A stretch of 64,000 bases of DNA. It comes from Candidatus Binatia bacterium (GTDB lineage: Bacteria; Desulfobacterota; Binatia; Bin18). The stretch lies in NCBI GenBank assembly GCA_963664395.2, contig OY761159.2, positions 512,001-576,000 of the forward strand, written 5' to 3'. Below, piece after piece: positions 39,123 to 40,801 of the stretch. Made by a program: the position numbers and the translations under genes. How positions within the stretch are numbered: the first letter of the stretch is position 1; the number at the start of each line of letters is the position of its first letter. A model generated the notes under the pieces. It saw only the letters and a program-made list of their open reading frames with translations. It searched no databases and was not told the DNA's origin.

Positions 39123-39143
39123 TCGAGCGGCACCACCGCTCAA
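39123..39143 (-). promoter_or_regulatory. Putative SECIS-like hairpin for UGA 39152-39154 (alternatively a terminator/stabilising stem)
   Basis: Minus strand TTGAGCGGT-GGT-GCCGCTCGA; loop G lies 17 nt after UGA. Confidence 0.5.
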
Positions 39144-40801
39144 CAACAACTTCAACTCGGAGGTGCGGCTGGCTGATAGTGTGTGTCGGTTTCCGTTGCA
39201 GTTTCGGCACTGCCGCTGGATGCCCCTCCACCCGCGCTTGCTACTTTTTCGCTTTGCTCCCCGTTTGCCGTATTTCCTACGGGAACACCAACAATCCGGA
39301 ATTTGTGCGATGCGATGCTTGAGTTGATTTCAATAGTGTGAGCGTCGATTATACCCCAGTCACTGTACTGCTCATCATCGCAATACACCTGTACCGCCTT
39401 CGGGTCTGGGAGTTGCGTCACCTTCCAACGTGTCGCTTCCCCACGGCGTGCTGCAGTGGCTGCGTAGGTTGAGACATGCAACGTCCCGTCGGTGACCTCA
39501 TTCCGAGCCTCACAAATTCCCAGATTCGGAAAGTCGACACCTTCGACTGTGGGTAGCTCAAACTGGGCGGCATGTTTTCCTTTATACACATTCGTCCATG
39601 CCCCAGGCCCGCCGATCTCGCTCAAGATCAGTAAGCCGTTCAGCTGACCACGTGGATGGGGTTCATCCAACCCAAACGTCCAGGCAAAGCGATCCTCGTC
39701 GTCGGCAAAGAAATCTGGCCCGTATTCTTTTTCCGCCACGGCTTTGAGACGCTTCTCTGTGGTAACGTCTCCAACCTCGCGCGCCAGCATTAACGTCATG
39801 GTCAGCCAACGTGGATCGTCAAATGCCTGCACCAGAGACTTTTTGGTGTCGTTCCAGCCAAGGTCCCGTACCCCAGCCTCATACAGCGCTAAGCCAAACT
39901 CCGGGGCCTGAGGATATAAATAGAATAACGGGGCGAGCATCGACAAACCGCTTAAACCAGTCGGCGGTGCGTAAGCGAATTCTTCGAGCGGATCATAATA
40001 AAACGCGAACGACGCAATATCTCCACGAGCGTTGCGAGTGGTGAAGTGCTTCTTCGCAAACTCAATCCATTGGTCGTAGACCCAATGCGTCTTGCAACCA
40101 AAAATCTTGTCATACAACTGAAGGCTCAAACCTGCAGCACTCAGACAGTATGGCCAAATTTTTGTGTTTTCGCATTGTGGCCCCTGCGGGCGCTCAGACC
40201 ACTGGTCTTCCAGAAACTCCGAGATACCAGGCTGTGTCCATTGGAACATACGATCATTATATCCCGTGACCTGGAACGGCTTTGCCCATTTATTGTCACC
40301 CGAGACATAGGAGTACGTGCCGAGTAATAAATTAAAAAACCCACGAAAAAAGAGATTACCATCCGCGCCTATGGGGTCTGGCTGAAGGCCCCAAGGCTCG
40401 ACCCCGTTGGCAGTCCAGCCCGGCGGATCGTAGCGCCCGCGCATATGCTCAGGCATAAAGACCAGCCATTCCGGTGGGTAGGTATCCTGATGCGGGTCGT
40501 GGCCGATGTAGGTCAGCCAGTCGACGGCGCCCCAATACGTGACATAGCGACCCACCAACTCATCGGCGATACGCGTATAGACCTCACGCCACGCCGGGGT
40601 CTGGTCGGCCATGAGCGGCAGGGCGTATGACGTTTCGGAGAGATCGAATCGAGGAAACGCACACATCGGCGGGGTGGTCGTTCGATCCCACCAGGGGAGT
40701 GGCTCACCACTACTGCTCCAGTCGTCTTGGGTGGTGGCCTTATCCCAAATGAACCGCAGCCAGCCTCGTGCACGCGGGTTGAGACCTTGCACACTATTCA
40801 T
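39140..40801 (-). CDS. Linalool dehydratase/isomerase-like protein, candidate C-terminal U-S-C-C tail (conventional stop 39152)
   Basis: QTPAWREVY, CENTKIWPYC resembling the LDI CEPDNYFVQC Cys pair; 3' end CCG AGT TGA AGT TGT TGT TGA. Confidence 0.7.

Follow-up and report, generated by a model that had tools for sequence, protein, structure and literature searches.

The gene end and its reading frame

The window analysed here is a stretch of 64,000 nucleotides (nt) from Candidatus Binatia bacterium (assembly GCA_963664395.2, contig OY761159.2, positions 512,001 to 576,000 of the forward strand). On its minus strand lies a gene for a protein resembling linalool dehydratase/isomerase (LDI), and the annotated stop codon of this uncultured Binatia gene, a TGA, is most likely not the stop but a codon for selenocysteine (Sec, U). 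The following features were identified for this gene and its 3' end, with positions counted from the first letter of the window.

39143..40801, minus strand: full coding sequence for the LDI-like protein, 553 residues when TGA is translated as Sec; Pfam PF18566 Ldi
40801, minus strand: ATG preferred as start codon over the TTG further upstream (40834); the aligned Met is also where homologs start
39152..39154, minus strand: in-frame TGA, proposed Sec codon (U550), aligned to the first Cys of CxCC in homologs
39143..39151, minus strand: Ser-Cys-Cys codons AGT TGT TGT, end of the U-S-C-C tail; frame and length kept in 16 distinct sequences of the genus
39140..39142, minus strand: second TGA, taken as the true stop, located within the 5' arm of the hairpin; CC is the exact end of most homologs
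39123..39143, minus strand: hairpin resembling a selenocysteine insertion sequence (SECIS), with a 9-bp stem and a GGU triloop, UUGAGCGGU-GGU-GCCGCUCGA

The gene ends with CAG CCA GCC GCA CCT CCG AGT TGA AGT TGT TGT TGA GCGGTGGTGCCGCTCGAG on the minus strand, and translation with TGA as U gives the C-terminus ...HYQPAAPPS-U-S-C-C-stop. The first-pass annotation of this DNA had placed a TGA at 39154-39152 and a frame continuing as AGT TGT TGT TGA, and both were confirmed. Reading through the second TGA as well was considered and rejected, since there is no conservation at the protein level beyond it in L033-L035 and homologs stop at CC. The frame after the second TGA is open (39101-39139, minus strand; AVVPLEC[CG]RLM...), with a further Cys-Cys in most congeners, and this part was read as non-coding.

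Proposed exchange of Sec and Cys among relatives

The homolog set consisted of 120 database proteins with 53-99% identity. The C-terminus is C-x(0-3)-C-C in 101 of them, most ending exactly at CC, and CC only in 11; two are fragments or different, and six end at ...PPS or ...PPG. The UGA is aligned to the first Cys of the CxCC motif in the 101 homologs, and the Cys-rich C-terminus that had been expected opposite this codon was thus found. Alignment of 102 sequences showed an invariant last Cys and a penultimate Cys conserved in at least 90%. The six proteins ending at ...PPS or ...PPG (P0003, P0005-8 with 84-85% identity, and P0018) are the closest relatives, terminate at the exact position of the TGA, and look like forms cut at the TGA by gene callers. 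In the accessible text of a preprint, the NCBI pipeline is described as unable to call C-terminal Sec ends of this kind (10.1101/2022.07.06.499078).

These six gene calls can also be quoted for the opposite explanation, namely that the TGA is a true stop, by which the CxCC tip was lost in this genus through nonsense mutation, the following SCC-TGA is a relic, and the hairpin is a structure for the transcript end or for mRNA stability. A single-base change is enough to turn TGT or TGC into TGA, and there are homologs without the tail, which presumably function. Decay would be expected of a relic, but none is apparent within the genus. The census of 28 genomes of the genus gave 17 orthologs, 16 of which carry exactly one in-frame TGA, with the alignment reaching the last residue. 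All 16 distinct TGA-form sequences keep the TGA, three codons, the second TGA and the hairpin, and with them the frame and at least one Cys; their tails are U-S-C-C, U-S-C-G or U-S-S-C, and synonymous AGC and TGC variants are present. A congener with the Cys form (L036, 85% identity) reads TGC AGC TGT TGC TGA at this place and has no hairpin. Nucleotide identity between the two deepest groups of the genus is distributed along the gene end as follows.

Final 30 nt of coding sequence up to the TGA: 81%
From the first through the second TGA: 92%
Remainder of the hairpin: 83%
30 columns following the hairpin: 32%
Further beyond: 19%

Since identity drops to 32% just after the hairpin, selection is considered to end at the 3' end of the hairpin and not at the annotated stop, and conservation of 83-92% up to that point counts against a true stop.

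The 3' ends of relatives were read from a scan of species genomes (80 kept of 509 relatives) and from a metagenome scan (72 loci). After removal of duplicates, 77 ends were of the CxCC type, 4 had CC only, 12 were of the TGA type and 9 were without a tail; only one further TGA form came from the metagenome scan, a duplicate of L024. A TGA at the same site of the tail was observed in two lineages outside the genus. One of them (L094, 54% identity) reads ...PKGG-TGA-CCG-AGT-TGC-TAA, that is, U-P-S-C, and then forms an unrelated 7-bp hairpin with a GUC loop. The other (L058, 77% identity) reads U-H-S-C-TGA; its hairpin shares the 5' arm of the genus form but has a differently paired 3' arm. The repetition of TGA, x-S-C-stop and a hairpin at the same codon in L094 is a further point against a true stop. 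The first-pass annotation had proposed to look for CxCC tails in some homologs and for TGA plus hairpin in others, and such a split was indeed observed, with TGA-x-x-Cys plus hairpin in some lineages and CxCC without hairpin in others. As U-x-S-C occurs in three lineages, the minimal unit of the tail is suggested to be UxxC, which corresponds to the first and last Cys of CxCC, that is, to CxxC.

Residue 209 (40175-40177, minus strand), just ahead of the first catalytic Cys, is occupied by His in 97 of the 121 database proteins bearing the motif. Gln or Asn at this residue was tried as a marker of the Sec form and rejected: it is found in all six truncated forms and in most forms with a TGA tail, but 16 Cys forms share it, and His is present in L094 and in two congeners of the TGA type. 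The pattern is confounded by relatedness, and the substitution may be a lineage effect rather than coupling to Sec.

The hairpin downstream of the TGA

The tail hairpin begins 8 nt past the first TGA and overlaps the second, and its stem includes two G-U pairs. The distance from the UGA to the first loop G is 17 nt, and GGU occupies nt 21-23 when counted from the U of UGA. The folding energy is -13.2 kcal/mol (z = -2.97), and 1 of 200 shuffled sequences was equally stable. In the neighbouring AhpD-like gene (TGA at 38546-38548) the triloop lies at an identical distance, and the 9-bp GGU-loop hairpin with the spacing of that gene, as proposed in the first-pass annotation, was borne out. Seven AhpD/CMD-like genes with an in-frame CxxTGA are present in the genome, including this convergent neighbour, and at five of six distinct loci the CxxTGA is followed by a hairpin with a 6-8-bp stem and a GGC, GGU or GUU triloop starting at nt 21-24. 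Because the tail hairpin has the same architecture, with GGU at nt 21-23, it was likened to the hairpins of the genome's own CxxU genes. For proteins ending in Cys-Sec-COOH, a SECIS located after the stop codon and carrying a GGU loop is described in the accessible part of 10.1101/2022.07.06.499078.

A dispersed repeat or a terminator, either of which would speak against a SECIS, was not indicated. The hairpin sequence has one exact match in the genome, and 11 matches at up to 2 mismatches compared with 18 for the reversed control; it is thus unique in the genome. A scan for terminators and promoters detected neither a terminator pattern nor a promoter at the hairpin, which lacks a T-run. The missing T-run, together with an architecture equal to that of the in-genome hairpins after CxxU codons, is difficult to reconcile with a structure of the transcript end.

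A second GC-rich hairpin, GGGCGACC...GGTCGCCC, is located at about 39065-39092 on the minus strand, approximately 45 nt past the SECIS-like one. It recurs in L025, L031 and L048, while other congeners differ there; a small element of mobile or terminator-like nature is a possible explanation. Among 33 TGAs of the genome that precede hairpins with at least 8 pairs, several share a stem ending in ...CGTG or ...CGGT, a GTC, GTA or GTG loop, and then ...GCC; the TGAs with these look-alike hairpins may belong to further unannotated selenoprotein genes.

The machinery for Sec incorporation

The source genome (5.04 Mb, 14 contigs) carries selA (596 bits), selB (390 bits), selD (316 bits) and a gene for tRNA-Sec (66.7 bits), all above the cut-offs, and the tRNA-Sec gene adjoins selA. 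Absence of the Sec genes, which the first-pass annotation had named as a ground for rejecting its proposal, does not apply. Within the genus, selA was detected in 26 of the 28 genomes, including all 16 with a TGA ortholog, and both selA and selB are present in the genome of L094.

A search of the source genome for formate dehydrogenase of the Sec type found none, and its selenoproteome appears unusually centred on AhpD-like proteins with GGC- or GGU-loop hairpins (L205-L209, L211 and 38285-38911). The selD match falls in an open frame of 759 aa (L010, G000:C1:4506291-4507208), far longer than a plain SelD, which suggests fusion with another domain.

Stop codon or Sec codon

Two counts speak for a SECIS: only 245 of the 164,163 TGA trinucleotides of the genome (0.15%) precede a SECIS-like hairpin with at least 6 pairs, and 15 precede one with at least 9 pairs; by a similar criterion, the hairpin was found in 11 of 12 TGA forms versus 2 of 77 Cys forms. 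Several points weigh against decoding of the TGA as Sec. Both criteria for a SECIS-like hairpin were chosen after the data had been seen, and 10 of these 12 TGA-form sequences come from one genus. Raw folding energy was rejected as a discriminator, since the means of -14.2 kcal/mol for TGA forms and -12.6 kcal/mol for Cys forms gave no separation. An Rfam search at E up to 10 returned no SECIS or other family, only two matches at chance level. Within the genus, 97.9% of the cells of the hairpin pair, and a change of both partners is seen in a single base pair, a result equalled by 115 of 500 shuffles; covariation is not significant, which favours a true stop, and the hairpin structure is backed mainly by sequence conservation and by its occurrence in three lineages. 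Common descent with the genus form is possible for one of these lineages, L058, as both read TGTTGAGCGG here. In addition, a search of the L058 bin (G041) gave no selA, and no selB or tRNA-Sec above cut-off; this either counts against Sec, and so for a true stop, or means that the bin is incomplete or mixed. On the supporting side, the TGA and the hairpin are spanned by RNA-library contigs in two studies (X1 record 2, X4 record 20), and parts of the gene are represented in such contigs from four runs; neither gaps nor depth of this coverage carry meaning, and it is no proof of transcription or of translation past the TGA.

Against a true stop stands, finally, that the hairpin is absent from L036 and from 75 of the 77 Cys forms. 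On balance, a true stop is hardly probable, and we estimate a probability of about 0.85 that the annotated TGA of the LDI-like gene is decoded as Sec to give a protein ending ...YQPAAPPS-U-S-C-C. On comparison of the gene sequences, the prediction of a new selenoprotein family with a known kind of recoding is well supported.

Fold of the enzyme and its Cys pair

The domains of the protein are arranged as follows.

39572..40801, minus strand: alpha/alpha barrel catalytic domain, residues ~1-410 (AlphaFold2, Foldseek)
40145..40174, minus strand: motif (H/Q)-C-E-N-T-K-I-W-P-Y-C with the Cys pair C210 and C219, neither of which varies among 102 aligned homologs
39290..39550, minus strand: C-terminal beta-sandwich, residues ~418-504 (AlphaFold2 strands; predicted local distance difference test score, pLDDT, mostly >90)
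39155..39268, minus strand: disordered linker rich in Ala, Gly, Ser and Thr, residues 512-549, ending in Y-x-P-A-A-P-P-S (AlphaFold2)

The match to Pfam PF18566 Ldi covers residues 141-362 (E 1.7e-10; 41.3 bits against a cut-off of 26.1), and no other Pfam family was found. The AlphaFold2 model, made with an input of 102 sequences, has a mean pLDDT of 80.7 and a predicted template modelling score of 0.84. Foldseek ranked LDI structures at the top (E 5e-13; TM-score on the target 0.66-0.70), followed by other alpha/alpha-barrel enzymes. Residues 512-553 have a pLDDT of 31-40, and the low-complexity linker noted at first pass is thus predicted to be disordered.

In LDI, C171 and C180 have a catalytic role and there is a requirement for a reductant; other active-site residues are His129 and, from the neighbouring subunit, Tyr and Asp. 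Titles of LDI entries in the PDB indicate that C171 and C180 were mutated in mechanistic work. In a phmmer alignment with solved LDI chains, C210 and C219 fall opposite C171 and C180 (numbering counted from the alignment), and the earlier identification of CENTKIWPYC with the LDI Cys pair is supported by this alignment as well as by the invariance of both residues. The protein is filed here, on sequence and predicted fold, as LDI-fold or LDI-like and not as LDI.

Paralogs with a proposed Sec at the active site

Paralogs with 39-45% identity were found at 19 places in 17 genomes of the genus, none of them in the source genome, and all 19 contain at least two in-frame TGA codons. In all five translated loci (L037-L041) the motif reads H-TGA-E-N-T-K-V-W-P-(T/L)-TGA, so that both catalytic Cys are replaced in a U-x8-U arrangement, and there is no tail. 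Hairpins follow both TGA codons, the second with a GGUCU loop. Another paralog (L062, ~1310-2780, plus strand; 488 residues) reads H-C-ENTKIWPF-TGA, that is, C-x8-U, likewise without a tail; a GGUCU-loop hairpin lies 15 nt downstream, and the gene is located just upstream of a tailed gene of the Cys form. The same C-x8-U form was observed at a contig end (L191), with an N-terminus of twin-arginine-like type. The L040 paralog is flanked by a gene for a short-chain dehydrogenase and by a Cys-rich gene that resembles DUF169, and no SCP2-fold partner was seen there.

It is known that Sec usually replaces a redox-active or nucleophilic Cys, and not general acids. The occurrence of Sec at three sites of one family is hard to square with chance stops, and argues that the Cys pair is redox-active or nucleophilic.

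Neighbouring genes

Two neighbours of the LDI-like gene were examined in relation to it.

40794..41399, minus strand: upstream overlapping partner of 201 aa, with an N-terminal hydrophobic helix and an SCP2-fold lipid-carrier domain (AlphaFold2 pLDDT 84)
38285..38911, plus strand: convergent gene for an AhpD-like (peroxidase-related) selenoprotein, C-H-Y-U, with TGA at 38546-38548 (TIGR01926, 119 bits with read-through)

In 63 of 71 loci, the gene immediately upstream of the LDI-like gene, in the same orientation, is that of the SCP2-fold partner. Foldseek matched it to the SCP2 domains of alkylsulfatase SdsA1, UbiJ and sterol carrier protein 2 (E ~1e-5); it has no match in Pfam or NCBIfam, and a profile run against PDB sequences gave nothing meaningful. 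Recurrent neighbours among the 71 loci were short-chain dehydrogenase (19), crotonase (11), Baeyer-Villiger monooxygenase (6) and family III CoA-transferase (6). As adjacency of the AhpD-like gene is confined to about 3 of the 71 loci, namely the genus and its closest relative, this gene is regarded as lying outside the conserved module. A luciferase-like monooxygenase is split over two overlapping open reading frames in different frames (41865-42623 and 41546-41974, minus strand), and this split gene (41546-42623, minus strand) appears to be a frameshift, a pseudogene or an assembly error.

The coupling of a gene for a carrier of hydrophobic ligands to the enzyme gene in 63 of 71 loci can be taken to suggest that the tail does not service the Cys pair at all, and is either a covalent carrier, with its thiol or selenol binding the substrate or an intermediate, or a docking peptide for the SCP2-fold partner or another subunit. 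Conservation of some 12 residues ahead of the tip (Y[RKQ]PAAPPS) among the closer homologs suggests a recognised peptide. More distant homologs keep only CC, and we know of no case in which Sec is the carrier residue; a carrier or docking function is very improbable.

A possible working mode of the tail

The arrangement of a Sec tail on an enzyme of the LDI fold with an SCP2-fold partner is best explained if the tail is an arm for redox relay. SelB and tRNA-Sec would decode the TGA at 39154-39152 under the direction of the GGU-loop hairpin, and the tip of the tail would form a C-terminal redox centre of the UxxC/CxxC type on a swinging arm. The Sec of the tail may form a selenenylsulfide with the neighbouring Cys and exchange with the buried C210/C219, either keeping this pair reduced or reducing it again at each turnover, and the oxidising equivalents would pass from the tail to a cellular reductant, with a cellular thiol system reducing the tip. 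The disordered linker of approximately 40 residues could reach any point of its own or of the neighbouring subunit. The enzyme is predicted to be cytoplasmic, with a hydrophobic substrate that is likely to be a terpenoid- or lipid-like alcohol or alkene, which the SCP2-fold protein, presumably anchored in the membrane, may hand over to it. This explanation as a whole is probable. Given insertion of Sec, the redox relay as the particular mode in which the tail works is proposed by analogy, with confidence somewhat short of even.

The same tail could be an arm for soft metals or metalloids, capturing Hg(II), Cu(I), As(III) or Zn and delivering it to, or removing it from, C210/C219. The C-terminal Cys-Cys of mercuric reductase MerA captures the metal and hands it over to an internal Cys pair, and most homologs of the LDI-like protein end in a vicinal CC at the extreme C-terminus. 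In the accessible text of 10.1101/2022.07.06.499078, CC and CU motifs, including C-terminal ones, are argued to indicate handling of heavy metals, and several selenoproteins with a relation to metals appear with CU or UxxC motifs in the accessible part of a review table (PMC13188914). According to the same part of this table, UxxC is the commonest redox motif (PMC13188914). No metal-resistance or metal-transport gene was recurrent beside the LDI-like gene among the 71 loci. In three TGA lineages CC is reduced to SC, leaving the redox motif U-x-x-C, and paralogs with Sec at the active site have no tail, which fits an arm servicing a redox pair somewhat better. The redox relay is therefore favoured over a metal arm on the commonness of UxxC as a redox motif, on the forms with an active-site Sec but no arm, and on a genomic context that is catabolic and not metal-related; the metal arm is unlikely.

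Against the redox relay it must be said that CxxC and CC motifs bind soft metals too, and that AlphaFold2 leaves the tail undocked. Homologs lacking the tail but having a Cys-Cys active site are found in actinobacterial loci, so that the tail is not obligatory and not essential to the chemistry of the fold. Furthermore, H129 of LDI pairs with F155 in the phmmer alignment, which is weak at 21 bits, and LDI chemistry is thus not simply transferable to this protein. The invariant C47 was examined as a docking partner of the tail and rejected, because tail-less actinobacterial homologs keep C47 and several tailed ones are without it.

A wider proposal is that enzymes of the LDI fold include a large, so far unrecognised family of cofactor-less thiol/selenol redox enzymes, with 509 relatives in the scan of species genomes, in which the Cys pair would be redox-active or nucleophilic instead of a catalytic acid/base and Sec may be placed in at least three ways: in a C-terminal arm of UxxC type, as U-x8-U and as C-x8-U. 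The arm would then be a stand-alone, flavin-free counterpart of the arm of thioredoxin reductase and would reduce the buried pair again; together with the SCP2 carrier it would define a new route by which hydrophobic alkenes or alcohols are hydrated, isomerised or reduced. We regard this proposal as speculative and rather doubtful.

Comparison with known systems

The first-pass annotation knew of no LDI-like selenoprotein, and searches of the literature, of a review catalogue and of NCBIfam agree with this. Among the papers searched, none pairs linalool dehydratase with selenoprotein or selenocysteine, or selenoprotein with Binatia. The accessible part of a review of May 2026, which covers 119 prokaryotic selenoprotein families and subfamilies, has no entry for LDI or PF18566 (PMC13188914). 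The main texts of the deep-Sep and BSepDB papers, as far as accessible, contain no LDI-like entry, and NCBIfam release 20 has no model matching the LDI-like protein. If the proposal is true, an enzyme family of a fold not previously tied to selenium joins the prokaryotic selenoproteome. A systematic annotation error would also be disclosed, the tail forms being deposited cut at ...PPS and the active-site forms being split at their TGA codons. For enzymologists, Sec at both catalytic Cys positions and a tethered Sec/Cys arm would provide a direct handle on the role of the pair, and the pairing with an SCP2-fold protein, with neighbours typical of terpenoid, ketone or lipid catabolism, would point to an uncharacterised pathway for hydrophobic substrates, widespread by the scan of species genomes among uncultured Binatia, Gammaproteobacteria, Nitrospira and Actinomycetota.

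LDI is a periplasmic enzyme, whereas no signal peptide is apparent in the LDI-like protein. The latter resembles LDI of Castellaniella defragrans (PDB 5hlr, 5g1w, 5i3t, 6tft and others) in its alpha/alpha barrel, in its match to Pfam Ldi and in a Cys pair with x8 spacing, and differs from it in sequence (16-18% identity), in its additional beta-sandwich and Sec/Cys tail, and in having a gene for an SCP2-fold partner. With the AhpD-like and CMD-like CxxU selenoproteins (TIGR01926, NF041238) it shares the architecture of the hairpin, but the fold is unrelated. The SaoC and DUF466 'KCU-star' selenoproteins, as far as described in the accessible parts of 10.1101/2022.07.06.499078 and PMC13188914, are similar in having Sec at the C-terminus or next to it, homologs with Cys-Cys-COOH, a SECIS with a GGU loop after the stop and truncation by annotation pipelines; those proteins are small and unrelated in sequence, whereas an enzyme of 550 residues is found here, with three residues after the Sec and, within the family, Sec also in the active site.

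The vicinal Cys pair at the extreme C-terminus is reminiscent of MerA, although neither MerA domains nor a mer-type genomic context is present here. In large thioredoxin reductases, a C-terminal arm with Gly-Cys-Sec-Gly (Ser-Cys-Cys-Ser in insects) shuttles redox equivalents with a buried Cys pair. The LDI-like protein resembles these enzymes in a flexible C-terminal extension that ends in a Cys/Sec cluster and in the interchange of Cys-only and Sec versions. Unlike them, it has no flavin or NADPH domain (Pfam Ldi only), its Sec is not vicinal to Cys (U-S-C-C, U-x-S-C), and its linker of about 40 disordered residues is much longer. The LDI-like protein is thus not a member of the thioredoxin reductase or MerA families, and at most may work in a way analogous to theirs.

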